Assembly: GCA_016212085.1 (NCBI GenBank)
Contig: JACRHL010000021.1
Coordinates: forward strand, 27,925 to 91,924
Direction: 5' to 3'
Length of the DNA stretch: 64,000 bases
Source: Nitrospirota bacterium
GTDB taxonomy: Bacteria; Nitrospirota; JACRHL01
Part shown: piece by piece, positions 44,202 to 64,000 of the stretch
Position numbering within the stretch: the stretch's first letter is position 1
How the letters are laid out: every line of letters begins with the position of its first letter
The notes under the pieces: model-generated
Database searches by the model: none
What the model was told of the DNA's origin: nothing
The model's input: only the letters and a program-made list of their open reading frames with translations
Made by a program: the position numbers and the translations under genes

Positions 44202-46217
44202 TTAGGCGGCCTCCTCGGCCGGCTTGGCGCGGCGCACCGGCAGGGTGACGCGGAAGGTGGCGCCGTTGCCCTCCTCGCTGGCCACGTCGATGGTGCCGTT
44301 GTGTTTCCTGACGATGCCGTAGGCCAGGGACAGGCCCAGGCCGGTGCCCTGACCCACCGGCTTGGTGGTGAAGAACGGGTCGAACAGCTTTTCCATGTGT
44401 TCCGGGGGGATGCCCTTGCCGTCGTCGGCCACCTCCACCCACACGAACTCCCCGGCGGCGCCGGTACGGATGGTGATGGTGCCGCGCTGCTGGATGGCAT
44501 GGGCGGCGTTCACCAGCAGGTTCATGAACACCTGGGAGAGCTGGCTGGGCACGCACTCCACCATGGGCAGATCGGCGTATTCCCGCACCACCTCGGCCTT
44601 GTACTTGATCTCGTTGCGGACGATGTTGAGGGTGGACTCGATCCCCCTGTGCAGGTCGGCCAGCTCCCACTCGTCGTTGTTCACGTGGGAGAACTCCCGC
44701 AGGTCGCGCACGATGCGCTTGACGCGGGTGATGCCCTCCACGCACTCCTCCACCAGGGCCTGGGTGTCGCCGCGCAGATAGTCCAGGTCGGCCCGCACGC
44801 GGGCGGCGCGCACCCGCTCCGCCAGCTCCGGATGGCTGGCGATCAGCGCGTCCGCCTCGCGGTAGGCGTCGATCACCTGGAACAGGTCGCTCAGGTAGCC
44901 GCCCAGGGTGCCGATGTTGGCGTTCACGTAGCCCACCGGGTTGTTGATCTCGTGGGCCACGCCGGCGGCAAGCTGGCCCAGGGAGGCGAGCTTTTCCGAT
45001 TGCAGCAATTGATCCCTGGCCTGCTTGAGCTTGGCGATGAGCAGATCCTGCTCGGCGCGCTCCATCTCCAGGGTGAACATGGCGCCTTGCAGCTCGCCGG
45101 TGCGCTCCGCCACCAGCTGTTCCAGGCGGTCGTACAGCTCGCACTGGGCACGCTCGGCGGCCACCTGCTCGGTGATATCGCGGATGACCACGGTGCGGAT
45201 GAGCTCGCCGTCCACGTTCACCTCGCTGCACACCACCTCGGCGGGGAAGGGCGTTCCGTCCCGGCGCATGCCGGTGCGGCCGCACCCGCCGCCGCACGGG
45301 TGAACCGTGCCACACACGAAGGTGCACTGGCCATCCCCGCAGGCGTGCCCCTCGGCGGCCAGCAGCGCCGCCAGCGACATGCCCAGCGCGTCCTCGGGCA
45401 GGTAGCCGAAGATGCGCTGGGCGGCGCGGTTGAAGGAGGTCACGCAGCCGTCGGCGCCGGTGGTGATGATGGCCTCGGCGGCGGTTTCCAGCACCATGCG
45501 GCCGCGCGCCTCGCTGGCTTGCAGCCGGCGCAGCAGCGGGCGGTTCAGCCGCACCACCGCCCACGCCCCCGCCAGCACCGCCACCAGCGCCAGCAGCGCC
45601 GAGCGCCAGGCGGCGGTCAGGAAAGGGGCGTGCAGCTCGGCCACGGGTATCTTGGCGATCACCCCCAGGTAGCGCGGCGTGCCGTTCAGCATCACGCTCA
45701 CCGGGGTGTAGGCGGCCAGCACCTTCCGCCCCTCGTAGTCGAGGCCGATCATGGTGCCGGTGCCGCCCTCCAGGGCGCGGCGCATGGGGGCCGCCAGCCC
45801 GGAGTCGTAGGGGACCGAACGGGGAAACTGCTGGCCGTCGCGGCCGACGATCAGGGCCAGGGAGATGTCGTCCCCGCTCCTCAGGCCCACCACGAACTCG
45901 CCGCTGCGGGCGCCCCAGCGGTGGCGCTGGTAGGCGGCGGAGAGCAGCGCCACCGGGTCCATGCGGGCGTCCTCCGCCGCGCCCACGGCGCTCTGGATGA
46001 AGCTGCGCTGCAACTCGGCCATCTCCACCAGCCGGTCCTGCTCCCGCTCCAGCGCCACCCGGTACAGCCCGAACATGGACAGGGTGCCCACCAGCAGCGT
46101 GACGCTGAGGAACACGGCCACCATCACCGCCAGGCGGCGAACATCGGAAAGGCCCGCGCGCCCGTCGGGCGCGGGGCGGCGCGGTTTCCGCGCGGCGGAT
46201 GGCGGCGCGCCGGTCAC
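44202..46217 (-). CDS. Membrane PAS sensor histidine kinase
   Basis: GTGA overlap; Cache-like DYEGRKVLAAY; QSEKLASLGQLAAGVAHEINNP. Confidence 0.92.
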   Translation of the reverse strand: MTGAPPSAARKPRRPAPDGRAGLSDVRRLAVMVAVFLSVTLLVGTLSMFGLYRVALEREQDRLVEMAELQRSFIQSAVGAAEDARMDPVALLSAAYQRHRWGARSGEFVVGLRSGDDISLALIVGRDGQQFPRSVPYDSGLAAPMRRALEGGTGTMIGLDYEGRKVLAAYTPVSVMLNGTPRYLGVIAKIPVAELHAPFLTAAWRSALLALVAVLAGAWAVVRLNRPLLRRLQASEARGRMVLETAAEAIITTGADGCVTSFNRAAQRIFGYLPEDALGMSLAALLAAEGHACGDGQCTFVCGTVHPCGGGCGRTGMRRDGTPFPAEVVCSEVNVDGELIRTVVIRDITEQVAAERAQCELYDRLEQLVAERTGELQGAMFTLEMERAEQDLLIAKLKQARDQLLQSEKLASLGQLAAGVAHEINNPVGYVNANIGTLGGYLSDLFQVIDAYREADALIASHPELAERVRAARVRADLDYLRGDTQALVEECVEGITRVKRIVRDLREFSHVNNDEWELADLHRGIESTLNIVRNEIKYKAEVVREYADLPMVECVPSQLSQVFMNLLVNAAHAIQQRGTITIRTGAAGEFVWVEVADDGKGIPPEHMEKLFDPFFTTKPVGQGTGLGLSLAYGIVRKHNGTIDVASEEGNGATFRVTLPVRRAKPAEEAA

Positions 46218-47632
46218 CGGCGCGGGGCCTCCGCCGGCGCCTCGGGCGCGGCCTCCGCCCGGACATGGTGCTGGCGCACGGGGATGGTGACGCGGAAGGT
46301 GGTGCCCACGCCCACCTTGCTCTTGACGCCGATGTGCCCGTGGTGGCGCTGCACGATGCCGTAGGCGAGGGACAGGCCCAGGCCAGTGCCCTTGCCCACC
46401 GGCTTGGTGGTGAAGAACGGGTCGAACAGCTTTTCCATGTGCTCCGGGAGGATGCCCTTGCCGTCGTCGGCCACCTCGACCCACACCTGTCCCCCGCCCT
46501 CGGCGGTGCCGGTGCGGATGGTGATGGTGCCGTGGCCCTCGATGGCGTGGGCGGCGTTCACCAGGAGGTTCATGAACACCTGGTTGAGCTGGCCCGACAG
46601 GCACTCCACCGGCGGCAGCGTGCCGTATTCCCGCACCACGTCGGCCTTGTACTTGATCTCGTTCTGGACGATGTTGAGGGTGGACTCGACGCCCTTGTGG
46701 ATGTCCTGCTCGGTCCACTCGCCCTCGTCCACGTGGGAGAAATCCTTGAGGTCCTGGACGATGCGCTTGACCCGCGCCAGGCCTTCCAGGCACTCGGCCA
46801 TCAGCTCGGTCACGTCGTCCTTCAGGAACGCCAGGTCCGCCTCCTGCTTCACCCGTTCCACCGCCGCCATGCGCTCCGGGTCGGCGGCGATCAGGGGGTC
46901 GGCGGACTGGTAGCAGTCCACCACCTTGAGCAGGCCGTCCAGGTAGTTTTGCAGGCTCGACAGGTTGGAATTGATGTAGCCCACCGGGTTGTTGATCTCG
47001 TGGGCCACGCCGGCGGCCAACTGGCCGATGGACGCGAGCTTCTCGGACTGGAACAGCTGGGTGTGCGCCTCCTCCAGCTTCTTGTTCATGCGCCGCATCT
47101 CGGTGATCTGCGCCTGCTGGTCCCGGTGCAGGCGCATGTTCTCGATCACCACCGAGATCATGTTGACCAGCATATGGCCGTGCTCCAGGTCCTCGGCGGA
47201 GAACGGCGTCAGCTCGTGGGAGCGGTTGATGCTCAGGGTGCCGACGAGCTGGGCGTCCAGCCGCAGCGGCCAGCACATGGCCGAGGCCGGGCGCTCGCGC
47301 GCCACGTTGCGCGATGTCACCCGGCTGTCGTGCTTCAGGTCGCCGTTGAGCAGCATCGGCTGGCGGGTTTGCGCCACCTGCCCCAGGATGCCGTTGCCCA
47401 GGGTGATGGGGGTGCCGATGGCGGCCTCGGAGAGGCCCACCACGGTGGTGATGGTCAGGTCGCCCGGCCCCTCGCCCTTCAGCGCCAGGCACCCGGTCGA
47501 GGCGTCGAAGCCGCGCACCACGTGCTCCAGCAGCTCGCGCCGGAGGGGCGCCGGGTCGTCCGCGGTGCCCGCGCGCTGGCCGATCAGGTACAGATCGTAG
47601 ATCCAGGCAAGCCGGTTGGTGGGATTCATCAT
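46214..47632 (-). CDS. GAF-domain histidine kinase
   Basis: GAF (GILGQVA, SAMCWPL); AHEINNP; FFTTKPVG. Confidence 0.93.
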   Translation of the reverse strand: MMNPTNRLAWIYDLYLIGQRAGTADDPAPLRRELLEHVVRGFDASTGCLALKGEGPGDLTITTVVGLSEAAIGTPITLGNGILGQVAQTRQPMLLNGDLKHDSRVTSRNVARERPASAMCWPLRLDAQLVGTLSINRSHELTPFSAEDLEHGHMLVNMISVVIENMRLHRDQQAQITEMRRMNKKLEEAHTQLFQSEKLASIGQLAAGVAHEINNPVGYINSNLSSLQNYLDGLLKVVDCYQSADPLIAADPERMAAVERVKQEADLAFLKDDVTELMAECLEGLARVKRIVQDLKDFSHVDEGEWTEQDIHKGVESTLNIVQNEIKYKADVVREYGTLPPVECLSGQLNQVFMNLLVNAAHAIEGHGTITIRTGTAEGGGQVWVEVADDGKGILPEHMEKLFDPFFTTKPVGKGTGLGLSLAYGIVQRHHGHIGVKSKVGVGTTFRVTIPVRQHHVRAEAAPEAPAEAPRR

Positions 47633-47675
47633 CGGTGGTCAACCCCCATTGCGGTCAGGAAGCGGTCCGCCGGCG

Positions 47676-48476
47676 CTACGGCACCAGCGTGAGCAGCACG
47701 CCCTGGCCGTGTGCGCCGCCCAGCCGCCGCACGTGGGCGTTCACGACGCGCGCGCCGGCGCCGGGCAGGGCCACCGCCATGTCGGTCTGGTCGGGCTGCC
47801 CCAGCAGCGTGTTCAGGGTGTGCGGCAGCGTGAGCTCCGCCAGACAGCTCACCAGGCTGCCGCCATCGGGCATGAACATCAGGTCGGCGGCGCGGTTGGA
47901 GATGGCGATCAGCCCGTCATCCGCCAGTCCGATCACCGGCACCGGCAGCGCCTCGATCAGATCCTGGAAGCCCTCCAGCGCCTGCTGCCGGAAGGTGACG
48001 TCGGCCACGGTCTCCGCCACCTGGCTGGCCAGCTCGGTGTTCATGGCGAGCAGTTGGCGGTTGGCATTTTCCAGGGCCGTTTGCAGGCGCCGGTTCTCCG
48101 CCTTCAACTCGTGATAGGAGAACGCCTCGGCGATGTCGGCCCGCAGGGCGATGTCGTCCCACGGCTTGGTCAGAAAGCGGAACACGGCGCCGCGGTTGAC
48201 GGCGGCCACCACGGATTCCAGCTCCGTGTAGCCCGACAGGGCGATGCGCACCGCGTCCGGGCGGACCGCGCGCGACCGCTCCAGGAACTCGACGCCGGTC
48301 ATCTCGGGCATGCGCTGGTCCGAGACGATCACGCCCACGTCGTGCGCCGCCAGGAGTTTCAGCCCGTCGGCCCCGGAGTTGGCCTTGTGGATGGTGTAGC
48401 CGTCGCGGCGCAGCACGCGCTCGATGGCGTTCAGGATGTTGGGCTCGTCGTCGACGAGCAGAAGGACGCGTTCCAT
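47676..48476 (-). CDS. Response regulator (receiver, coiled coil, PAS-like)
   Basis: LLVDDEPNIL, SDQRMP, FLTKPW. Confidence 0.9.
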   Translation of the reverse strand: MERVLLLVDDEPNILNAIERVLRRDGYTIHKANSGADGLKLLAAHDVGVIVSDQRMPEMTGVEFLERSRAVRPDAVRIALSGYTELESVVAAVNRGAVFRFLTKPWDDIALRADIAEAFSYHELKAENRRLQTALENANRQLLAMNTELASQVAETVADVTFRQQALEGFQDLIEALPVPVIGLADDGLIAISNRAADLMFMPDGGSLVSCLAELTLPHTLNTLLGQPDQTDMAVALPGAGARVVNAHVRRLGGAHGQGVLLTLVP

Positions 48477-48644: not shown

Positions 48645-48673
48645 AAAACCGCCAAAACGCCAGAAACGCAAGG
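48645..48673 (+). promoter_or_regulatory. CAGAAACGC repeat motif, copy 1
   Basis: aaaaccgccaaaacgccagaaacgcaagg, about 90 bp before the terS operon. Confidence 0.55.
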
Positions 48674-48761
48674 TGCCGTATTTAGCGCGCCGCTAATCTG
48701 CCCCCATGCGGCCGGCAGCCCGATGGGCGGGCGCCCGGCCACCATGCACGGAGGGAGAACG

Positions 48762-48935
48762 ATGATGGAACGCGACTGGCCCTACCCGCCCCAATGGCAG
48801 GAGCGCCGCGAGGAGATGGCCCGCTGCGGATGCAGCCACTGCGACGCCCTGCGCGCCGACGCCCCGGCCAAGGCCGCCGCCCTGGCGCGCTACGTGGCGG
48901 CCCAGGGCACCGCCCCGGCGGAGGCGGCCCCATGA
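48762..48935 (+). CDS. 57-aa hypothetical protein with CxCxxC
   Basis: GGAGGGAG RBS; ATGA-coupled to the next gene. Confidence 0.65.
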   Translation: MMERDWPYPPQWQERREEMARCGCSHCDALRADAPAKAAALARYVAAQGTAPAEAAP

Positions 48936-49204
48936 GCGAGACCGGCAACTGGCACCTGGACCGGCGCGTGTCGGTGGGGCACCTGGTCACCACCCTCACC
49001 GTGCTGGTGGCCATGGTGCTGTGGGGGGCGCGGCTGGAGACGCGCATCGTGCTCATGGAGCAGGATGCCGCCCGCCAGGCGCGCGTCGACGCCCGCCAGG
49101 AGGCGGACGTGCAGCGCCTGCGCGAGGAGATCCGGGAGGAGCTGAAAAGCCTGAACGCCAAGATGGACCGCTTTTTCGAGCGGCTCATCAAGGGGGGTGA
49201 GTGA
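48932..49204 (+). CDS. Phage-type small membrane protein (1 TM plus coiled coil; holin-like?)
   Basis: WHLDRRVSVGHL, TM, coiled coil; coupled to terS. Confidence 0.65.
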   Translation: MSETGNWHLDRRVSVGHLVTTLTVLVAMVLWGARLETRIVLMEQDAARQARVDARQEADVQRLREEIREELKSLNAKMDRFFERLIKGGE

Positions 49205-49656
49205 CCCGGCCGGACACCGCCGCCGGCCAGCGCGGGCGCGGTACCCCCACGCGCTACACCATCGCCACCGCCCGCGCCATCTGCCAGCGCCTGGCGCGGG
49301 GCGAGCCCCTCACCCTGGTCTGCGCCGATCCGGCCATGCCCGCCTACCGCACGGTGATGGACTGGCTGGCGGCGCGGCCGCGCTTCCGGGAGATGTATGC
49401 CCAGGCGCGGGTGCTCCAGGCCCATGCCCTGGCGGACGAGATCCTCCAGGTGCTGCGCTGTGACCGGCTGCCCCCGGCGGACAAGCAGGCGCGCATCAAG
49501 GGGCTGGCGTGGCTGGCCGCCAAGCTGCACCCGCAGAAATACGGCGACCGCTCCGGCCCCGCCCCGGACGGCGCCCCGGCCCCCGGCTTCACGGTCATCG
49601 TGAACCCGCCGGCCATCGGGGCCGAACCCCTGGAACAGGAGAGTGACGATGAATAG
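49201..49656 (+). CDS. Terminase small subunit (Sf6 gp1-like)
   Basis: PTRYT...ICQRLARGEPL..VC.DPAMP...TVMDWL...FREMYAQAR...WLAAKLHPQKYGDR. Confidence 0.85.
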   Translation: MTRPDTAAGQRGRGTPTRYTIATARAICQRLARGEPLTLVCADPAMPAYRTVMDWLAARPRFREMYAQARVLQAHALADEILQVLRCDRLPPADKQARIKGLAWLAAKLHPQKYGDRSGPAPDGAPAPGFTVIVNPPAIGAEPLEQESDDE

Positions 49657-54336: not shown

Positions 54337-55026
54337 CTACTGCGTGCCCCGGAGGGAGAATAGGATATCGACGGCTTCGTGTACGTGCGTGTGGGGATTC
54401 GACGTGCCGTTGGCTGATGCCCGCAGCAGGCCGGCGGCAGCTAGTTGCCCTGCGGCGGCCCTTCTGTTTTCAAGGTGCTGAAAAATACCAGCGCTTCCTT
54501 TGTGGTAAGCGGGCCAGTGCTGTTTCAGCAGATGTTCCGTCTGCTCCCCGATGGACCGCCCCCCTGACGGCGCAATGGGTGCGGTATGGTCCGTGAAGTG
54601 CAGCAATAACCAAAACTCAAAGCAGGGCTCCGATGTAATGGCGCGGAAATCGGCCTGTCCGGCGGATTTTCTCCCACACTTCATGGTCAACGGGGTTTGT
54701 TGAATGGAAGCGACGGCGTTTTGGTAATGGTTGTGGCTGTCCCGGTCGAACACGCACAACACGTAATCGTAATCGGGATGCTTCCGGAATTCCTCTACAG
54801 CGGTCTCAACCAGCCGTTTCGGATCGCACCCGGCGCCAATAACCTTCATGTTCAGGGTCTGTATTCTTTGGCTGGCGCGGATTTCCTTGAAATAGGTGGC
54901 GGAGGATTTTCCGTCCTCACAGACCACAAGCGCCCGCTTGTAGGTTGAGCGGGTCGCCTCCCGCCGCTTCAACTCCTTGGCGGCGTGCGCCTTGCGCTTC
55001 TGGTGCAGCTTGTCCGGCGCCATCAA
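54337..55026 (-). CDS. RloB-family protein
   Basis: LVVCED, CVFDRD, SEPCFEFWLLLHF, NPHT. Confidence 0.9.
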   Translation of the reverse strand: MMAPDKLHQKRKAHAAKELKRREATRSTYKRALVVCEDGKSSATYFKEIRASQRIQTLNMKVIGAGCDPKRLVETAVEEFRKHPDYDYVLCVFDRDSHNHYQNAVASIQQTPLTMKCGRKSAGQADFRAITSEPCFEFWLLLHFTDHTAPIAPSGGRSIGEQTEHLLKQHWPAYHKGSAGIFQHLENRRAAAGQLAAAGLLRASANGTSNPHTHVHEAVDILFSLRGTQ

Positions 55027-56276
55027 AGCCGTTCCGGCGTCAGGACCGGGAGCGCGCCGTAGCGCCCGCTCATGTAACCCTTTTGCAGTTTTTCATCCAG
55101 GCGTGGCTTGAACTCGGACAGCGGCGTGAGCGTCGACGCCTGCGACGCGTCCTTTTCGACCAGCCAAATCTGGTCGCGCCGGAACAGGTCGTCCATCAAC
55201 GTTACATCGTGGGTGGTGAAGATAAGCTGTGCGTTTTTCGGGTTGTAATGGGGTGAATGGATCAGTTCCACCAGAAAACGCACCAGCTTAGGGTGCAGGC
55301 TGCTGAGCTCATCGATAACCAGCACCATGCCGTTCGCGATGATATCCCGCCACGGGCCGGCCAGGGCGAACATCGCCCTGGTACCGTCGGATTCCGATTC
55401 AATTGGAAACCGCTCCTGTCCGCTGCCGTCGGGGCACTCGTGGAGAAACACGGGCCGCCGCATCTTTTTGCCCACGATCTCTTGTTTCAATTCTTCTGGC
55501 GCGCTGGGAAGGTCGTCCGCCGTGATCGTCTTTCGATCGACAGCGATTCCATTGATGCCCAGGTCGGCGGCCTTCATGAAATTAGCAAGACCGGAAGCGC
55601 CGCCTTCATTTTCAATCATATCCAGCGTGTGAGCGATGTGACGGTACTCCAGCAAACCGTTCCCCATCAGGAACAGCCCCTCCTGGAACCACTCCGGGAT
55701 GACCGACAACTGCTCGTGGTTGAGCTGTGCCGCCGTCGACACGAACAGGGCGTTGGGGCGAGTGGCCTCCTGGATGACCTGCCTCTGCCCCAGCAGGCTG
55801 TTCCCCATCCCCCAGGTGTACGCATCGCTTGCATCGTCATAACTGCGCTTGAACCACATCTGCGCGCGGCCGACGGGCCAAGCAAACAGCCACTCCTCCA
55901 CCACCCGTTCGCGGGTCAGCGCAAATCCGTACTGGTAGTGGATGCCCTTGTGGATGAACAGGATCTCGAATTCGCTCGGCTGATTCCGGCTATCCCGGTC
56001 CAGGAGAAACGGCGTCGCGCCGGTTTTCGCCTTGGGCTCACGGCCCGTCGCGGAATCCCGGACAAAGTTGTGCATGAACGCCAGCGCATTGATTACGTTA
56101 GTCTTTCCGCTGGCATTGGGGCCGAACAGAGCGGCCGAGCGGAGGAGTCGGGGGGCCTTGGGGGCCTTGGGGTCGAAGGTGTTGCCGGGCATCTCCTTTC
56201 CGGAGCCCGCCACCATGGACAGCGTCTGCTTCTCCCGGATGGACCGGAAGTTGGTCACGCTGAACTCGATGAGCAT
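55023..56276 (-). CDS. AAA_21/AAA_15 ATPase (RloA/AbiLi-like)
   Basis: MLIEFSVTNFRSI, GPNASGKTN, ESDGT, IDE...LHP, QLIFTTH, GRYGALP. Confidence 0.92.
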   Translation of the reverse strand: MLIEFSVTNFRSIREKQTLSMVAGSGKEMPGNTFDPKAPKAPRLLRSAALFGPNASGKTNVINALAFMHNFVRDSATGREPKAKTGATPFLLDRDSRNQPSEFEILFIHKGIHYQYGFALTRERVVEEWLFAWPVGRAQMWFKRSYDDASDAYTWGMGNSLLGQRQVIQEATRPNALFVSTAAQLNHEQLSVIPEWFQEGLFLMGNGLLEYRHIAHTLDMIENEGGASGLANFMKAADLGINGIAVDRKTITADDLPSAPEELKQEIVGKKMRRPVFLHECPDGSGQERFPIESESDGTRAMFALAGPWRDIIANGMVLVIDELSSLHPKLVRFLVELIHSPHYNPKNAQLIFTTHDVTLMDDLFRRDQIWLVEKDASQASTLTPLSEFKPRLDEKLQKGYMSGRYGALPVLTPERL

Positions 56277-56497: not shown

Positions 56498-58312
56498 CTA
56501 CCCGATTAGCCCCGTGTCCGCCGGCAGGTCCGCCGTTCCCGGCATCTGCAACCCGGCGTTGATGCGGGCGGCCTCCGCCGCCGTTTTGGCGGCGCGGGCG
56601 GTGCGTTCGGCGATTTCGGCCCTGATGAGCTCCCGCTGGAGCATGGCCGCGTCGGTGGGGTCCGGGGCGGGGCCCCTCATGAGTTCCAGGATGCGCTCCC
56701 TGCCGCGCAGGGAGCTGGCCTCCACCAGGGCCTCCGGCGGGATGGGCACGCCGCCCTCCGCCAGGCGCGCCAGGGTCTGGAACTCCTCCTGCCGCACGGA
56801 GGCCGTGTCGGGCACGTCGCCCACGATGATGTCCACGTCCAGCTCGGCCACGTGGTTCTGGTGGGCCACCACGTCGTCCAGGCTGGGGTCGCCGATCAGC
56901 TCCGGCGGGATCTCGCCGAACTCGTCCACCAACTGGGCGGCGCGGGTGACGGGGATGTTCAGCCCCACCCAGGCCAGGCTGCGCTCGTCGTTGGTGACGC
57001 GCACCCAGCGCACCTCGGTCCAGAACTGGCGGATGCGCCCCCACGCCTTGCGGTAGGCGCGGGTCTGCCAGGCGCGCAGGGTGTCCAGGAGCGGCCCCAG
57101 CTCCATGCGCGCCCCCTGCTGCAAGAGCTGGATGGCGCGGCCGCTGGCGCCCTCGGCCCCGGTGATCTGGGCGGCGCCCGCGCCCACGGCGTCGATCTCG
57201 TTCTTGGCCTCGGTGAGCAGCTGGAACTGGGCCGTGGCCATGTCGCCCGTGGGCAGGATCTCCAGCTCGAAGCCGGGCACCGTCTCCAGCCAGCCGTCGG
57301 GCCGGGCCAGCTCGCGGCGGGCGCGGGCCACGTCCTCCACCGCCCCCTTCTCGGCGCGCACCTGGCGCACGGAGAGCAGGTGCAGCGCCTTGGAGCGGCG
57401 CTTGTTGATCTCGTCCTGGATGCCGATCATCTGGCGCACGGCGCCGTAGCGCTCGCCATCGCGGGCGACGAAGGCGGCGGCGCACACGTAGGGGTCTTCC
57501 GGGTTGCCCTCGTCGTCCCGGTAGGGGGAGGCGGTGGGGCCCTTGAGGATGCCGCCCCGGCAGAACACCGCCTGGAACACCTGGCTCCCCTCCTTGTACC
57601 AGCACTCCACCACGCGCACCCGCCGGCGGCGGCGGTCGGCCCAGCGGCTGGGCTTGTCGTCGTAGGTGCCACTCTCGGCCTCGGTGTAGGCGCTGTCGAG
57701 CAGTTCCAGGTGGTTGGGATACTTGGCCTGGGCCTCCGCCAGGTCCATCCAGATCACCTGGCCGCGGTACCTTGCGTCCTCCAGGTCGCGGCGGCGGGCG
57801 TGGGGGTCCACGAAGGCGCGATCCCAGCCGATGGGGCTGATGGTCACGCGGGTTTGTGTCCCCCTGCGCGCCGCCACCACCTCGGCGAAGCCCGAGCCCT
57901 CCACCAGCATGTGCTCGAACACCTGGGAGCGGACCTGGTCGAAACCGTTGTCGTCGAGCACGAAGCGGATGGCCTCGGTGGCGGCCTTGGCGGCGCCCTC
58001 GTCCGCCGGGTTGCGCGGGAAGCAGCGCGGGTCGGTGCGGCTTTGCCGCTCCAGGCCCAAGAGGTAGTCCACCTTGGGCTTGATGCGGTTGACCACGATG
58101 GGGGCCTGGCCGCGCCGGGACAGGGCGTCCTCCTCGGTGGCGGTCCACTGGCGGCCGTCGTAATAGTCGCGGTCGCGCTCGGCGTGCAGGCGGCCCTCGA
58201 GACTGGCGTCCTCCGCCTCGTCGAAAAAGCCCACCAGCTTGGCCAGCAGGGCCTCCCGTTCGGCCTGCTCGGCCTGGGATTGCCCGTTTTGGGATTGCCC
58301 GTTTTGGGTCAT
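56498..58312 (-). CDS. Phage portal protein (P22-like/podovirus type)
   Basis: DRDYYDGRQW, NRIKPKV..LLG, YGAVRQMIGIQDEINKRRSK, SGRAI, N.VAELDVDIIV; ATGA-coupled to terL. Confidence 0.88.
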   Translation of the reverse strand: MTQNGQSQNGQSQAEQAEREALLAKLVGFFDEAEDASLEGRLHAERDRDYYDGRQWTATEEDALSRRGQAPIVVNRIKPKVDYLLGLERQSRTDPRCFPRNPADEGAAKAATEAIRFVLDDNGFDQVRSQVFEHMLVEGSGFAEVVAARRGTQTRVTISPIGWDRAFVDPHARRRDLEDARYRGQVIWMDLAEAQAKYPNHLELLDSAYTEAESGTYDDKPSRWADRRRRRVRVVECWYKEGSQVFQAVFCRGGILKGPTASPYRDDEGNPEDPYVCAAAFVARDGERYGAVRQMIGIQDEINKRRSKALHLLSVRQVRAEKGAVEDVARARRELARPDGWLETVPGFELEILPTGDMATAQFQLLTEAKNEIDAVGAGAAQITGAEGASGRAIQLLQQGARMELGPLLDTLRAWQTRAYRKAWGRIRQFWTEVRWVRVTNDERSLAWVGLNIPVTRAAQLVDEFGEIPPELIGDPSLDDVVAHQNHVAELDVDIIVGDVPDTASVRQEEFQTLARLAEGGVPIPPEALVEASSLRGRERILELMRGPAPDPTDAAMLQRELIRAEIAERTARAAKTAAEAARINAGLQMPGTADLPADTGLIG

Positions 58313-59757
58313 GCGGTTTTCCACCCGATCGTCTCCTTTTCGCAGAATGCCTGGTGCCACCGGTCGGCGGCGGGGTTGGCGGTGGCCCGCGCGGGCGCCT
58401 GGGGGCGGCTCATGCAGGCGTACCGGGTTTCGTCATAGGCGTGGTCCTCGGCGGCGCTGTCCACGTCCTCCGGGTCGGCGGGGTCCAGGGGCAGTTCGGG
58501 CACCGTGCGCAGAAAGCCGTCCAGGCAGGAGGAGAACACGTACAGCATGGGCCGCCCGTCCTCCCCCTCCAGGCGGCGGCGCACCTCCTGGTAGCCCGCC
58601 TTGCGGTTGTTGGCGGCGCGGCGCAGGATGACCCCCGCCGCCGCCATGTGCTCGGCCACGCTGGGGCCGTCGTGCTGGCCGAAGATGGCCGGGTCGGCCA
58701 CCCCGTAGGCGATCTTCTCGCCCTTCTCGCGCGCAAGGATGCCCTGGGCCACCTGGGTGCTGGTGAGGCGCAGGCCCCGGTCGGGCCGGCCGTCCCAGCC
58801 GTACCACTCCCGGTAGCGCACCAGGGCCCCGGCGGGGAGACAGGCCCCGCCGGGCAGGGATGCCCCGCCGGGCAGGGGCGCCCCGCCGGCCACCGCCCAC
58901 CACCCCACCGAGAACGGCTTCGAGCTGCCCCAGTCCAGGGCCCGGAAGCGCGGCCAGTGGGCGGGCACGGCAAACGGCGCCAGCACGTGGCGTTGCCGGT
59001 CGAACAACTCCAGGGCCTGGCCGGCGGCGATGTCCCAATCGCCATCGCGCAGGGCGCGCACCAGCTCCGGCGCGCCCAGGCCGCTTAGGCGCTCCAGGTA
59101 TTCCGGGTCCTGGGCCAGCAGCGTGGGGTTGTCGGCCAGGCGCGCGGGGATGTACTGGCGGCGCATGCCCCCCTCCTCCGGGCGGGCGCGCCACACGCGG
59201 CCCGGCTCGGCGGGGGCGACCCAGGCGGCCTTCACCCAGGCGTGGCCCACCGAGCCGGGGTTGCTGGCGCACTCGATGCGCGGCAGCAGCCCCGCGTGGC
59301 GCACCGGCACCTTGAGCCCCGCGCGCCGCACCCGCGAGCGCAGAAAGCGGTACTGCGCCTCGGAGAAGTGGGTCAGCTCGTCGATGAGCAGCACGTGGAT
59401 CTCCGCCCCCTGGTAGCGGGCCACGTCGGTCTCGTGCTGCAAATGGGCCAGCTTGAGCACGCTGCCGCTTGCGAAGCGGAACTCCGCCTGCTGCTCGCGC
59501 CACGCCACCTGGCCGGCGCCGGCAAGGGGGGCGAGCAGCTCGTGCAGGTTGCCGGGGCCGCGCAGGTGATTGGCGCGCAGGTCCGGGTGGGTGCGGCGGA
59601 ACAGGTACACCTGGATGCCCGGCACCTCCAGGCACCAGCGGATGCCCGACACGCGCAAGAGGAAGCTCTTGCCGCCCCCCGCCGCGCCGCCGTAGAGCAG
59701 CTCGGTGGCATGGCTCAAGAAGGCCTCCGACTGTTTGGCATGCAAGCTGACCCGCAC
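58309..59757 (-). CDS. Terminase large subunit
   Basis: LYGGAAGGGKS, YQGAE, IDELTHF, ASNPGSVGHAWVK, LDWG, DHAYDETRY; GGAGG RBS before GTG. Confidence 0.93.
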   Translation of the reverse strand: MRVSLHAKQSEAFLSHATELLYGGAAGGGKSFLLRVSGIRWCLEVPGIQVYLFRRTHPDLRANHLRGPGNLHELLAPLAGAGQVAWREQQAEFRFASGSVLKLAHLQHETDVARYQGAEIHVLLIDELTHFSEAQYRFLRSRVRRAGLKVPVRHAGLLPRIECASNPGSVGHAWVKAAWVAPAEPGRVWRARPEEGGMRRQYIPARLADNPTLLAQDPEYLERLSGLGAPELVRALRDGDWDIAAGQALELFDRQRHVLAPFAVPAHWPRFRALDWGSSKPFSVGWWAVAGGAPLPGGASLPGGACLPAGALVRYREWYGWDGRPDRGLRLTSTQVAQGILAREKGEKIAYGVADPAIFGQHDGPSVAEHMAAAGVILRRAANNRKAGYQEVRRRLEGEDGRPMLYVFSSCLDGFLRTVPELPLDPADPEDVDSAAEDHAYDETRYACMSRPQAPARATANPAADRWHQAFCEKETIGWKTA

Positions 59758-59799
59758 CGGCCCTCCCAACGGTTCGTGACCACCACCGGGGTCCGAGGT

Positions 59800-59864
59800 T
59801 ATCCGCCCGGACGGCCATGCGGCGTTACGTTTCTTGCGTTTCCTGCGTTTCTGGACGTTGCCGG
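59800..59864 (-). promoter_or_regulatory. CAGAAACGC repeat motif, copy 2
   Basis: Minus strand: ccggcaacgtccagaaacgcaggaaacgcaagaaacg...gcatggc...ggcggata. Confidence 0.6.
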
Positions 59865-59993: not shown

Positions 59994-61247
59994 GTGCGCG
60001 TTTTTTTGTTCATCCTGGCCGTCTGCTGCGCCCTGGCCGCGCCGCCCGTGGAATTCGCGCGGGCGGCGGACGACGGGCGCTTGCCGGTGCTGGAGGCGCT
60101 GCTCGAGCGGTCGGCGGCGGGGAATCCGGCCCTGTCGCCGGATCTGACGCAGGCCGCCGCCGCCGTCCGCGCCGGCCGCACCGACGAGGCCGTCGAGCGG
60201 CTGACCCCCCTGGCGGACGCGGGCGACCCCTGGGCCCAGGCGCTCCTGGGGGAGGTGCTGCTCAGGACGGGCGCTCCGGCCAACCTGGCCAAAGCCATTG
60301 GCAGCCTGACCGCCGCCGCCAACGGGGGCGTGGCAGAGGCCGCGTTCTGGATCGCGGAATATTTTGATCCGGCCATCGGCCTCTGGCCGGACGTGGAGTG
60401 GGCGCGCACCTGGTACCAGCGGTCGGCGGAAGGGGGGTATGCCGGCGCCGCCTACACGCTGGCACGCAACTACTACTTCGGCGGACCGGGCCTTCCGGCC
60501 GATATCGCCGAGGCAGTGCGGTGGTACAAGGTGGCGGCGGAAGGCGGGGAGCCGCTGGCCGCCAGGGTGCTGGGGGAGCTGTATTGGAATGGCCTCGGCG
60601 TGGCGGCGGACCGCCGCGAGGCGCTACGCTGGTACCAGGTGGCGGCCGACCATGGGGATCTGGAGGGTCTCACGCTGGTGGGGTGGGCCCTGGTTACCGG
60701 CGAATGGCTTGACGCGGACCCGCCCCGGGGGCACGCGCTGCTCGACCGCGCGGTGCGACAGGGATACCCGGACGCGATCGGCCGAAAAGCGCTGACCCTT
60801 TTTCTCGGCCGGGGGTTGGAACAGGATGTGGACGCGGCCATCCATATGCTCATGCCGCTGGCGGAAGCCGGCGACACCCTTTCGCAGGCCCGTTTGGCGA
60901 CTTTCCTGAGCATGACGGACGATGGGGCGGACAACCTTTCCCGCGCGCTTCGGCTGGCGCGCGCGTCCGCCGAGCAGGGCGACATGGCGGGCCAGTTCGA
61001 ACTGGCCCGCCTGCTGATCACTCGTGACGCCATACGCGACATGAACGAGGGTCGCCGCTGGCTGGAACGGGCCGCCCGCACCTGCCTGGACCAGCGCGCC
61101 CCCGACGTTGCGAACCTGATCGTGCCGCTGCTGCGCGCGCACTTTCCCGATTCGCCCGTGCTGCCGGAACTGGAGCGGATGCTGGCGCCGTTGGCCGGCG
61201 TATTGGCGGATCCGGCCCTATTGCAACGGTTTGTCCTGGGGCCCTGA
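59994..61247 (+). CDS. Secreted Sel1-repeat protein
   Basis: Signal peptide; repeated A..WY..AAE.G...A...LG..Y..G. Confidence 0.9.
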   Translation: MRVFLFILAVCCALAAPPVEFARAADDGRLPVLEALLERSAAGNPALSPDLTQAAAAVRAGRTDEAVERLTPLADAGDPWAQALLGEVLLRTGAPANLAKAIGSLTAAANGGVAEAAFWIAEYFDPAIGLWPDVEWARTWYQRSAEGGYAGAAYTLARNYYFGGPGLPADIAEAVRWYKVAAEGGEPLAARVLGELYWNGLGVAADRREALRWYQVAADHGDLEGLTLVGWALVTGEWLDADPPRGHALLDRAVRQGYPDAIGRKALTLFLGRGLEQDVDAAIHMLMPLAEAGDTLSQARLATFLSMTDDGADNLSRALRLARASAEQGDMAGQFELARLLITRDAIRDMNEGRRWLERAARTCLDQRAPDVANLIVPLLRAHFPDSPVLPELERMLAPLAGVLADPALLQRFVLGP

Positions 61248-62126
61248 CAACGCGTTTGCCGCGTCGTTGAACACGTTGCTGAACTGGTCCCCTAGAACCC
61301 CCTGGGCGACCGGGTTTCGTGGGCCAATAAAGAGCCGGGCCGCCACGCCACCCATCAGACTCCTGGACCCGTCCCGTCCCATGGCGGCGATTGCGGCTTC
61401 CGCCGCCGATTCATGGGGAACGCCCAGTTCGCGTAGGGTGCGGTATGCTTCGCCCCCCGCGTTTGCCGCGTGGAACGTGGTACCGGTGGCGGCACCGACG
61501 GGGGTGCCGTAGGCGGATACCCCGATTTGGAGGCCCGATCCCACCGTCTCGGCGAAGTCCGCCCCGACCCCCTGCGGGTGGTACCGCCCCGCCTGGCGCG
61601 CAAAACCCTCGGCGGCCGTGCCCATATGGGTGGCGGTGGCGCCGAATCCGGCGGCGCCGGCGGCGGCCGCGCCCCCCAGGGCCAGGCCGGTTTGCGTGTC
61701 CAGCACCCCCTGCCGCACGCGGGCGTTGAAGTTCCGGGTGAAGTCGATCGGGACATCGGCGCGCGCCCGGTCAGCCGCCATGTCCCATTCCGGGCGATAG
61801 GCCTCCAGGCGCGGATGGATGCCCGTGGGGTCGAAGGGTGCCCCCGGCCCGATTCCCAGCCGCTGAAAGGCCGGCGTCGGCTCGGCCGCCGGCCGCCAGC
61901 CGTTGGCCGCCTGCCGGTCCAGGGCCGTGGGGGCGGCGGGGCCGAATGGTCCGGCCGACCAGGGCGTTTCGTCCTGGATCATCGGCCCCATGGCATTGCG
62001 GGGGATGGTGTTGAACGGCACCACCAATGGCGGCGGGGTCTCGTCGGCGATCATCGGTCCCATGGCGTCATGGGGGATGCTCGTGCCGTGGGCGGCGCGG
62101 CGGGTGAGGTTCAGTGGATTCGGCAT
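61218..62126 (-). CDS. Hypothetical Ala/Gly-rich protein, possibly a phage ejection/cargo protein
   Basis: GGGAG RBS; duplicated AMGPMI(A/Q)DETP; glycine-zipper-like segments. Confidence 0.65.
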   Translation of the reverse strand: MPNPLNLTRRAAHGTSIPHDAMGPMIADETPPPLVVPFNTIPRNAMGPMIQDETPWSAGPFGPAAPTALDRQAANGWRPAAEPTPAFQRLGIGPGAPFDPTGIHPRLEAYRPEWDMAADRARADVPIDFTRNFNARVRQGVLDTQTGLALGGAAAAGAAGFGATATHMGTAAEGFARQAGRYHPQGVGADFAETVGSGLQIGVSAYGTPVGAATGTTFHAANAGGEAYRTLRELGVPHESAAEAAIAAMGRDGSRSLMGGVAARLFIGPRNPVAQGVLGDQFSNVFNDAANALSGPQDKPLQ

Positions 62127-62163
62127 GGCGCGTGTCTCCCCGGGTTCATTCCCGCGCCCAGCC

Positions 62164-62217
62164 TATCCACCCGCCATGCCCGACGCCTTGCGTTGTCTGC
62201 GTTTCTGGCGGTTCCGG
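62164..62217 (-). promoter_or_regulatory. CAGAAACGC repeat motif, copy 3
   Basis: Minus strand: ccggaaccgccagaaacgcagacaacgcaagg...gcatggc.ggtggata. Confidence 0.6.
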
Positions 62218-62690: not shown

Positions 62691-64000
62691 CTAGATCCGC
62701 CTCGGGTGGGCGGCGAACGGCCGGTACAGGGGGTCGCCGATGAGCACCATGCGCCACGACAGGTGCGGGATGGTGCGGTAGAAGGCCGTCACCAGCGGCT
62801 CCCCGGCCAGCAGTTCGGCAAAAAAGGCGCCCGGATCGGGAAAGGCGTCCAGGTACGGCTCGGCCACGGGCCCCAGGGTGGCGGCGGCGCCGGATTCGAG
62901 CATGCGCTTGCACCAGTTCTGGGCGGCCGGGTCGTGCAGGTGCTGGGCCTCCACGCTGGCGGCGTGATAGCCCACCGCGCCCCGCTTCCAGGTGAACACG
63001 GGCGCATACCTGCCCAGGGCATACCACCCCGCATAGAGCGCCGCGTCCGGCGCGCCGGCGAGCAGCTCGGGCCGGTCGTCCAGCACCACCGGCAGGGCGG
63101 CCGCCTGGAGGCGGGCGGCGGCCCGGCGCAGGCCGGCGTCGAAGCCGGCGTAGGGGCTGTCGCCGGTCTTGCCGCGCGCGTCGATGTAGGCGGTGCCGGA
63201 CAGGCCGTCCCGTTCCACGGCCACGGCGTCGTCCACTAGGCGCATGGCCACCTGGGGGGTGGGGCCGTCCAGCCGGGCCACGGGCACGATGGTGGCGCGC
63301 GGCGGGCCGATGCCCGGCGTGCGGTCGAACTCCGCCAGGAGCGGATTGGGCAGGCGCGCGGCGGTCTGGTGGGGCCCGCCCAGGGCCAGGGCCAGTTCGC
63401 TGTCCACGGCGGCGCCGTTCTCGTTGGCCGGGTCCACCCCCACCAGGCCGTTCCAGAACGACAGTTCCCCCAGCGCCCCCTTGTGGGCGCGGACGCGCTC
63501 CGCCAGCGCCGCCAGCCCCTCGGTGGGGATGCCCCGGAATTGCAGGTCGAGGGCCATGGCCGCCTCGTCCGTGCGCAGGCCGGCGCCGCCGGTGGCGCCG
63601 CGCAGGGCGGCGCGCAGGGTCCACACGGTGTCCTCGGCGCCCTGCATCTGGATGGCGGCGGCCAGGCGCGTGGCGGCGTGCTTGGCGCGCTCGCGGGAAA
63701 AGCGGATGAACTCGGCCTCCGGCAGGGCGGCCAGGTCCCGCGGCGCGTCGCCCAGGGCGGCCAGCAGCTCCGCCACCGCCCCGTTGGCGGCCTTTCTGGC
63801 CTGGTCGCGGCCCTTCTGGACGGTTTTCAGGAAGGCCCCGGTGCCGCCCGGCTCCTCGCCCTCCACGCGCAGGGGCACGCCGTAGGCCAGCAGCACCACG
63901 GGGGCGCGGCCCTGGGCCTTGAGCGCGTCCACCCGCTTGCGGATGGGGGCCACCATGTCCGGCAGGTCGCGCCGCGCCATGCGCTCGGCGTCGGGCACGG
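62691..64000 (-). CDS. TIGR03790-like protein (5' end outside window)
   Basis: YGVPLRV, AAVDSELAL, VARLDGP, LYAGWY, GAVGYHAAS, GPVAEPYL, IGDPLYRPF. Confidence 0.8.
   Translation of the reverse strand, partial: VPDAERMARRDLPDMVAPIRKRVDALKAQGRAPVVLLAYGVPLRVEGEEPGGTGAFLKTVQKGRDQARKAANGAVAELLAALGDAPRDLAALPEAEFIRFSRERAKHAATRLAAAIQMQGAEDTVWTLRAALRGATGGAGLRTDEAAMALDLQFRGIPTEGLAALAERVRAHKGALGELSFWNGLVGVDPANENGAAVDSELALALGGPHQTAARLPNPLLAEFDRTPGIGPPRATIVPVARLDGPTPQVAMRLVDDAVAVERDGLSGTAYIDARGKTGDSPYAGFDAGLRRAAARLQAAALPVVLDDRPELLAGAPDAALYAGWYALGRYAPVFTWKRGAVGYHAASVEAQHLHDPAAQNWCKRMLESGAAATLGPVAEPYLDAFPDPGAFFAELLAGEPLVTAFYRTIPHLSWRMVLIGDPLYRPFAAHPRRI

Follow-up and report, generated by a model that had tools for sequence, protein, structure and literature searches.

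Three phage-type operons in a 64,000-nt stretch of a Nitrospirota bacterium genome (hereafter the window, which lies on the contig that we call C18) are each preceded by an array of head-to-tail 9-bp repeats, and arrays of the same kind precede further phage-type operons elsewhere in the 2.70-Mb genome (70% G+C). Judged by its sequence and distribution, the array is a real, conserved cis-regulatory element. We think it likely that it forms the upstream half of a late promoter that depends on an activator and would have been copied onto each fragment of a dispersed P22-like prophage. An earlier note on the window had described three phage-like units: these are indeed phage-type, but they are only three of at least eight transcription units (S1 to S8, named after their arrays) that belong to one P22-like late gene set spread over at least three contigs.

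At the three window sites, the repeat unit has the consensus AAACGCAAG with an invariant core, CGCA. S1 (positions 48645 to 48673, + strand) consists of three units, AACCGCCAA AACGCCAGA AACGCAAGG, and ends in CGCAAGG; S2 (59823 to 59864, − strand) consists of four, AACGTCCAG(A) AACGCAGGA AACGCAAGA AACGTAACG; and S3 (62186 to 62213, − strand) consists of three, AACCGCCAG(A) AACGCAGAC AACGCAAGG. Genome motif scans added three arrays on C18 beyond the window, S4 (C18:96921, −, two units), S5 (C18:107553, +), and S6 (C18:108271, +), as well as S7 on contig C4 (53938, −, four units), and a profile search added S8 on contig C20 (10818 to 10774, −, two units). The genome total is eight arrays (six on C18 and one each on C4 and C20), each intergenic and in the same orientation as the next gene, with S6 falling within the 3′ end of the open frame of the gene after S5. 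The last unit stands 88 nt ahead of the next start codon at S1 (48762), 65 nt at S2 (59757), and 59 nt at S3 (62126), and this distance ranges from 59 to 104 nt over the six C18 arrays. The three motif strings quoted in the earlier note occur at the positions and on the strands it gave; its approximate 9-bp period is an exact register at S1 to S3, and its interval of 60 to 115 bp before the start fits, in our judgment, the distances measured from the last unit. The sequences GCATGGC and GGYGGATA are common to S2 and S3, as it had observed: GGATA is part of a −10-like element, and GCATGGC is missing from the other sites. Its remark that the motif was unseen before host genes holds genome-wide, in that no gene of recognizable host function follows any of the eight sites.

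A chance origin of the arrays is ruled out by window shuffles, block shuffles, and profile E-values. With up to one mismatch allowed, CCAGAAACGCA has 6 matches in the window where 0.89 would be expected, a count that none of 100 shuffles attains, and three of the five exact copies of this 11-mer in the genome are in the window. A regular expression derived from the three window sites alone, AAC[CG].{5,6}AACG.{5}AACG, matches five genome positions, all on C18 and including one new locus; a looser two-unit expression yields 42 genome matches, 8 of which are in six intergenic C18 loci. For a more sensitive search, we used a profile (a sequence-only covariance model) of 18 aligned sites from seven genomes, each of a different genus, with seven of the source genome's sites in the training set. 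In the source genome, the seven training sites score E ≤ 4.2e-7 (3.2e-7 for S1, 8.7e-8 for S2, and 3.6e-9 for S3), S8 scores E = 0.0015, and everything else lies above 0.03; S8, although outside the training set, also precedes a phage-like gene. All eight arrays stand ahead of phage-type genes. A matrix of the single unit finds 7 genome positions at ≥21.5 bits, versus means of 0.30 and 0.15 in shuffles of 1-base and 3-base blocks, respectively, a comparison that is circular for the training sites and serves as a rough gauge only. Block shuffles were used here because AACGCAA is mirror-symmetric, which makes a reversed-genome control uninformative.

Anchored on the promoter-proximal core, the 18 sites align without gaps. 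The four positions of this core (C-G-C-A) are kept in 18, 17, 17, and 18 of the sites, and C recurs at columns 6, 15, 24, and 33 (in 18, 15, 18, and 17 sites), which is an exact 9-bp period. The hexamer TAnAnT follows 20 nt past the 7-nt core, with T, A, A, and T at its positions 1, 2, 4, and 6 in 11, 14, 11, and 11 of the 18 sites, in a genome that is about 15% A and 15% T. The predicted −10-like elements of the window are GCTAAT/TAATCT at S1 (48692 to 48699, +; 18 to 20 nt past the last unit), GATAAC at S2 (59798 to 59803, −; 19 nt), and GATAGG at S3 (62162 to 62167, −; 18 nt). If the hexamer is the −10 element that sets the transcription start, as its placement suggests, the proximal unit would lie at about −42 to −33, in place of a −35 element. 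The −35 position itself reads AGGCGG-like across the alignment, unlike TTGACA, and a consensus sigma-70 scan called no promoter at six sites within two scanned stretches, which we read as a missing −35 rather than a missing promoter. On this reading of the sequences, the layout is that of a promoter needing a bound protein instead of a −35 contact. Judged by eye, an extracytoplasmic function (ECF)-type promoter (GAAAC-N16/17-CGT) suits S2 alone and has the wrong spacings at S1, S3, S4, and S6, and the sigma-54 signature TGGCAC-N5-TTGC is lacking.

The genes behind the arrays cover packaging, capsid, and lysis functions. (i) S1 precedes a 57-aa open reading frame (ORF; 48762 to 48935, +) with a good ribosome-binding site and no family match, an 88-aa membrane/coiled-coil protein (48938 to 49204, +) for which a lysis-associated, spanin-like role is a lead only, and an Sf6-like small terminase subunit (TerS; 49201 to 49656, +; Pfam PF20901, E = 1.9e-31; phrog_1482). 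The 88-aa protein has counterparts of 47 to 66% identity in relatives, in each of which it directly precedes terS. (ii) S2 precedes the large terminase subunit (TerL; 58309 to 59757, −; Pfam Terminase_6N), which has a GTG start and is followed by a P22-type portal protein (56498 to 58360, −; Pfam PF16510, E = 6.9e-110). (iii) S7 precedes a 243-aa scaffold-like protein and a Phage_capsid_3 capsid protein (E = 1.4e-56), in an operon that also has PHROG matches for tail-fibre, minor-tail, and DNA-ejection proteins. (iv) The remaining units are less readily named. The first gene after S3 encodes a 302-aa protein (61218 to 62126, −) with two N-terminal AMGPMI[AQ]DETP repeats; besides small ORFs, the S4 operon encodes a 969-aa protein that contains Ig/fn3 domains, and it closes with a gene (3′ part at 62691 to 64000, −) for a ~650-aa protein that is cut by the edge of the window; S5 is followed by a frameshifted paralogue of the N terminus of the S3 protein, S6 by a gene for a 343-aa protein, and S8 by ORFs beginning MSDIIADETP. 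Neither the 302-aa nor the 343-aa protein has a Pfam, PHROG, or NCBIfam match; homologues occur in one and two, respectively, of the seven family genomes, and the atlas matches of the 343-aa protein are to unnamed viral clusters only.

The system recurs in six further genera of the family, represented by Nitrospirota/Leptospirillia metagenome-assembled genomes (MAGs) G001 to G006. TerL orthologues without stops are present in all six (61 to 72% identity) and in none of 34 genomes from the phylum's other families; the next best TerL has 51% identity, and the best deposited phage has 45%. The capsid gene is 61 to 63% identical in G003 to G006, partial in G001, and not found in G002, a fragmented assembly. 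The same array architecture, with one to five units, stands ahead of TerL, capsid, and lysis/TerS orthologues in the six genera: that of G005 reads AAAACGTCT AAAACGTCC AGAAACACC AAAACGTCC AAAAACGCAGGG and that of G003 reads CGCAAGAAA CACAAGAAA CGCAAGAGA CGCAGGG, G001 has three units and G002 one, and G004 and G006 have a C-rich variant (CCGCCACAC CCGCAAGAC). A −10-like hexamer lies ~20 nt past the array in every relative's case. Profile matches outside the training set comprise six more copies in G005, of which one lies ahead of the genes for the 88-aa protein and TerS and another ahead of the only family homologue of the S6 343-aa protein, one copy before an endolysin-type lysis operon in G003, and one before scaffold and capsid genes in G001. 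Array copies are more alike within a genome than they are to their orthologues (the G005 copies share ~70 bp), as expected under coevolution with one binder or under homogenization. In G004 and G006, a conserved noncoding block (CTGTTTAG...GCTAnCTGTTAGnAnTCGGGG; L013:9400-9480 and L014:9450-9530) sits between terS and a small membrane-protein ORF and is followed by strong terminator-like hairpins ahead of the TerL promoter.

The regulator most likely to bind the arrays, as far as gene context and homology indicate, is a 132-aa HTH_17 protein encoded outside the window (C18:107137-107535; PF12728, E = 9e-8; TIGR01764, E = 7.5e-7), the stop codon of whose gene is 17 nt before the first S5 unit. 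The earlier note had nominated TerS or the peptide encoded at 48762, both of which are products of the regulon, and the HTH_17 protein is a better candidate than either. It has a C-terminal HTH_17/excisionase domain, which also weakly matches sigma-70 region 4 (E = 0.0024) and ECF sigma (E = 0.021), and a disordered, proline-rich N terminus. The gene belongs to a module within ~2 kb of S5 that includes a 160-aa protein with only a helix-turn-helix (HTH), a pair of replication-type genes, of which one weakly matches lambda P, and, ~2 kb from the HTH_17 gene, a repressor-like gene for the 242-aa HTH and Peptidase_S24 (LexA/CI-like) paralogue of the 160-aa protein. Orthologues of the HTH_17 protein are present in all seven family genomes, at 52 to 66% identity in five of the six relatives and as a partial sequence in G001, and a LexA-like gene and/or HTH paralogue adjoins them in five of the six, the G002 locus being too short. 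A collection of 5.8 billion proteins holds ten relatives of similar length, and none were found among 50,697 deposited phage records. In structure comparisons, the top Foldseek rows, all weak (E > 0.1), are the excisionase RdfS (probability 0.92), RacA, and BldC (probability 0.75).

An independent viral contig from IMG/VR shows the undivided layout, consisting of regulator gene, one late promoter, and late operon. It encodes an HTH_17 homologue of 56% identity that is followed, ~10 to 25 nt later, by the array CCAGAAACG CGCGAAACG AAGGAACCG CAAGC; after 20 nt come TAGACC, an endolysin-like gene, TerL (62%), and portal, and a CI-like gene lies upstream. The lambda Q gene likewise stands directly before its late promoter. 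By this comparison, fragmentation of such a layout would give the arrangement seen in the family genomes, in which each piece has kept a copy of the promoter. A prophage in G006 (contig C47) has late genes that follow a weak HTH_17 homologue, with no clear array. Downstream of the HTH_17 gene in G005, G004, G006, and G001 (L096, L097, L098, and L100), a palindrome, ATGACAAATATCAT, is conserved and is a candidate operator; the same four genera share a second conserved element after this gene, a stretch of ~35 nt (GTTGCGACGTGACTCCTACCCCCCATTGACCCGGCGG) that may represent a small RNA or the remnant of an attachment site.

Under the explanation that we favor, DNA damage would remove the LexA-like repressor, and the HTH_17 protein would then be made; its protomers would line up head to tail on the 9-bp units, as far downstream as about −33, and would recruit RNA polymerase to the −10-only promoters or load onto the polymerase. 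With a promoter copy on every fragment, one regulator could switch all of the scattered fragments together, firing them at once. SOS control of the HTH_17 gene by the adjacent LexA-like protein is probable, and we infer activation rather than antitermination. The earlier note had offered two readings of its motif: that of sites for a dedicated activator, with its promoter, agrees with the co-orientation, the ~20-bp spacing to the −10, the presence at every phage block, and the conservation in seven genera, and that of a TerS or packaging (pac) site fails, as discussed below.

Several observations weigh against this explanation or against the nominated regulator. The S5 −10-like hexamer is poor (TCACGT), and the G004 and G006 sites are far less A-rich than the others. 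No array lies directly downstream of the HTH_17 gene in G001, G004, G005, or G006, and what ties this protein to the arrays is adjacency, conservation, and fold class, and nothing further. Its AlphaFold model (ten sequences) has a moderate pLDDT of 68, and a Foldseek search with this model returned no match at E ≤ 0.001. The recognition-helix residues are invariant in 10 homologues, yet the units vary between genera outside the CGCA core, so the protein either reads the core alone or leaves the remainder of the unit to a different protein.

Two rival explanations also assign the arrays a role in transcription. The units could be the loading site of a processive antiterminator of the Q/AlpA type or the target, in the −35 region, of a sigma-like appropriator, which we consider unlikely; the protein would then attach to the array, associate with RNA polymerase at the promoter, and accompany it through the long late operons. 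The circuit does resemble AlpR-AlpA in its LexA-like repressor, HTH regulator, and lysis genes (PMC9371919), the HTH_17 gene is in the lambda Q position directly before a late promoter, its product has the weak sigma matches given above, and long operons follow S4 and S7. The S5 leader moreover contains a 4-bp GC stem and then T7, and the S6 leader a 7-bp GC hairpin, but no leader terminator was called at the six scanned sites. The AlpA element is described as a single 6-bp site between −35 and −10 that takes one protomer (PMC9371919), whereas the arrays have one to five units above about −33, and the 132-aa protein has no modelled ring-like domain and a disordered, proline-rich N terminus. 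That the arrays are instead operators, at which the LexA-like protein or the HTH-only paralogue would cover the −35 region and silence late genes, seems to us improbable. Their position overlaps the expected contact of sigma region 4, the module has two conserved HTH repressor-type genes, and P2 Cox is reported both to repress and to activate from arrays of boxes (PMC3936717). Against repression, there is no recognizable −35 to mask, and promoters of this kind should therefore be weak unaided; Cro/CI-type HTH_3 dimers normally read palindromes, whereas the arrays are strictly direct repeats, and the conserved palindrome ATGACAAATATCAT sits elsewhere in the module.

The other two rivals give the arrays no part in transcription, and we reject both. 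Short repeated boxes do occur in some pac regions, and terS has one array 528 bp upstream of it; as a TerS recognition site, however, the array would be present in eight copies on three contigs rather than once per genome, co-oriented with the next gene and keeping a constant spacing to a −10-like hexamer, with seven of the eight away from terS and with the arrays of relatives preceding capsid and lysis operons. In P22/Sf6-type phages, the pac site is inside the terS gene. Copy number, distance from terS, and promoter position together leave packaging the least credible of the explanations. Scarcely more credible is a mobile or recombinational repeat (resembling miniature inverted-repeat transposable elements [MITEs] or repetitive extragenic palindromes [REPs], or left as rearrangement scars) without regulatory role. 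The genome does contain other dispersed repeat families, and copies within a genome are more alike than orthologues, with the ~70 bp shared in G005 as an example. The earlier note would have taken as a refutation a motif that is frequent and randomly placed in intergenic DNA or is part of a mobile repeat: instead, there are only eight sites, constrained in orientation and in distance to the start codon and never inside genes or before recognizable host genes. They share only 27 to 45 bp in the source genome, with differing flanks, and have no terminal inverted repeats or target duplications; across the seven genera, the periodic core and the −10 are kept while the rest has diverged.

In logic, the closest known system is the PrtR-PrtN-P-box circuit of the Pseudomonas aeruginosa pyocins, in which tandem direct repeats are described 60 to 100 bp ahead of the ribosome-binding sites of several unlinked operons that answer to one small activator, the gene for which is held off by a RecA-cleavable repressor (PMC4905994). 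As with the P-boxes, array-like tandem direct repeats (of one to five units) here precede several unlinked phage-derived operons, at eight sites in the source genome (59 to 104 nt before the start codon for the six on C18), and a LexA-like gene lies beside the candidate activator gene. The two differ in the repeat, which is a 9-bp unit with a CGCA core here and ATTGnn(n)GTnn(n), of 10 to 11 nt, in the P-box; in the candidate activator, an HTH_17 protein rather than a member of the PrtN family (PF11112), for which the genome has no match at E ≤ 0.1; in the regulon, which includes terminase, portal, and capsid and would thus make DNA-filled heads rather than tailocins; and in the host phylum.

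In likely protein-DNA mechanism, BldC, Xis, and Cox would come closest. BldC of Streptomyces, a MerR-like winged-helix protein, is reported to form head-to-tail multimers on direct repeats, each protomer reading AATTnnnnC and four subunits binding a 36-mer with four repeats (PMC5859096); its repeats are described as 9-bp direct repeats, and BldC, Xis, and RdfS are grouped as winged-helix proteins that oligomerize head to tail (PMC11963761). The winged-helix excisionase Cox of phage P2 is reported to read multiple 9-nt boxes and to activate the P4 late promoter (PMC3936717). The HTH_17 candidate is of the same fold class as these proteins, by its HTH_17/excisionase domain and its weak Foldseek matches to RdfS, RacA, and BldC, and the arrays, like BldC targets, have a variable number (one to five) of direct repeats of ~9 bp. 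The BldC boxes are AT-rich, unlike the GC-cored units here, and Cox boxes start every 10 to 11 bp, unlike units that are strictly 9 bp. To our knowledge, none of BldC, Xis, RdfS, and Cox is a late-gene master activator of a whole structural regulon. With lambda Q, 21Q, and AlpA, the candidate shares a gene position directly upstream of the late promoter on which the regulator acts, but those systems have one late promoter and the present one has up to eight copies. AlpA is described as being under a LexA-like repressor and switching on lysis genes (PMC9371919). Its binding element, a single hexamer, falls between −35 and −10, in contrast to arrays that lie upstream of about −33.

As for the phage-derived element that the arrays mark, its gene content and distribution suggest that it is probably an old, dispersed P22-like prophage that has been domesticated. 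Structural genes of the source genome are on C18 (in five blocks), C4, and C20; in G003 to G006, the capsid and TerL genes either lie on different contigs or are separated by 8 kb or more, and each of the seven genera has retained intact core genes. The lysis-TerS-TerL-portal block is flanked by the same host genes in G004 and G006, which are 42 to 60% identical between the two genomes, as compared with 70% for TerL and 76% for portal. These flanking genes replaced a 957-aa protein of the window as the host-identity baseline because the latter, a multiparalogue sensor kinase, is uninformative for this purpose. Domestication is harder to reconcile with the existence of related contiguous (pro)phages (G006 contig C47 and the IMG/VR contig), with the persistence of some replication genes, and with the several regulon members, such as the 302-aa and 343-aa proteins, that are not common to the genera.

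Gene transfer agents (GTAs) such as RcGTA and CcGTA likewise have phage-derived head, tail, and lysis genes distributed over several loci and conserved across a bacterial family. These two are reported to be switched on by dedicated regulators, GafA and GafYZ (PMC11150451). The element resembles them in having phage-derived genes at several loci, in being kept across one bacterial family, and in its putative dedicated regulator; it departs from them in its podovirus-type, P22-like genes in Nitrospirota, as opposed to an HK97-like alphaproteobacterial cluster, and in its SOS-type repressor module. That it transfers DNA in the manner of a GTA is a tentative suggestion from gene content, and a domesticated particle-producing element of any kind is somewhat more probable. 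In the same tentative spirit, the eight promoters may form the regulon of an undescribed P22-like, DNA-packaging, GTA-like system of this Leptospirillia family, scattered before the genera split and kept in step by a LexA-like repressor and a BldC/Xis-type winged-helix master activator that polymerizes on the 9-bp repeats. If true, this would be the first GTA-like element in Nitrospirota and the first excisionase-fold protein to act as a late-gene master switch. A literature search on gene transfer agents in Nitrospirota and prophages in Leptospirillia brought up no published account of an element of this kind in the lineage.

In seven genera of a poorly known lineage, this compact, testable signature (a 9-bp CGCA-cored array, ~20 bp, and TAnAnT) tags all fragments of a phage-derived system, half of the array-marked proteins having no family match. 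It also suggests how a late operon can break up and yet fire together, by means of an activator-dependent promoter copied to each fragment, and nominates a regulator from a family with only about ten relatives in the 5.8-billion-protein collection. If particles are made, GTA-like domestication would extend to Nitrospirota with podovirus-type parts; if not, PrtN/P-box logic would have been rebuilt naturally from an unrelated protein fold.

Several features of the array-following genes merit mention. An N-terminal I[AQ]DETP(P) motif is present in four array-following proteins, namely, the 302-aa protein (twice; window 62040 to 62126, −), the frameshifted S5 gene (L001:16700-16800, +), the scaffold-like protein (L105:11640-11676, −), and the C20 ORFs (L107:5380-5520, −), and could be a capsid-targeting or protease-processing signal of internal head proteins. 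The S5 gene (L001:16651-17311, +, equivalent to C18:107651-108311) changes frame near L001:16840, where third-codon-position G+C content (GC3) shifts from frame 0 to frame 2; this makes it a pseudogene with a frameshift, unless the shift is programmed. At C20:10400-10650 (L107:5400-5650, −), a ~240-bp tandem duplication affects the 5′ region of the gene after S8, such that a 60-aa N-terminal stretch is encoded twice, the upstream copy being truncated.

The phage-derived blocks are separated by host and defence genes (Sel1-repeat, AAA_21 ATPase, globin, pentapeptide, TPR, GGDEF, CheX-like, DUF4136, and pentapeptide-TIR). Defence-type genes are found at block break points: an AAA_21 (AbiEii-like) ATPase lies directly after portal (window 55023 to 56276, −), and a pentapeptide-repeat and TIR protein is divergent from S7 (L105:12400-13674, +). 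Divergent from S1 (window 46214 to 48476, −) are genes for a GAF-histidine kinase and a receiver-only response regulator, and weakly related kinase/regulator genes adjoin terS in G001 and an HTH_17 paralogue in G003. A regulatory link of this pair to the arrays is possible from gene position; the response regulator itself (47676 to 48476) is disfavored as the array binder because its Pfam match is to the receiver domain alone, with no DNA-binding domain. Among the other dispersed repeats of the genome, a REP/MITE-like repeat of ~70 nt (...GTCGAGGATCG..GAAGCGACAACGCAGGCTCCGGCGGAAAAGCCGTGGCCGGTGCC) has about twenty copies, often in tandem pairs (for example, C18:24557, C18:25199, C19:22277-22549, C20:7120-38074, and C16:294859), and a second family, GGCCGTACCGGCCGTACGGGCAAGCGCTGCAACGCAGGGTTGCGAAAAAATGGGCC, is found on C3, C15, C16, and C22.

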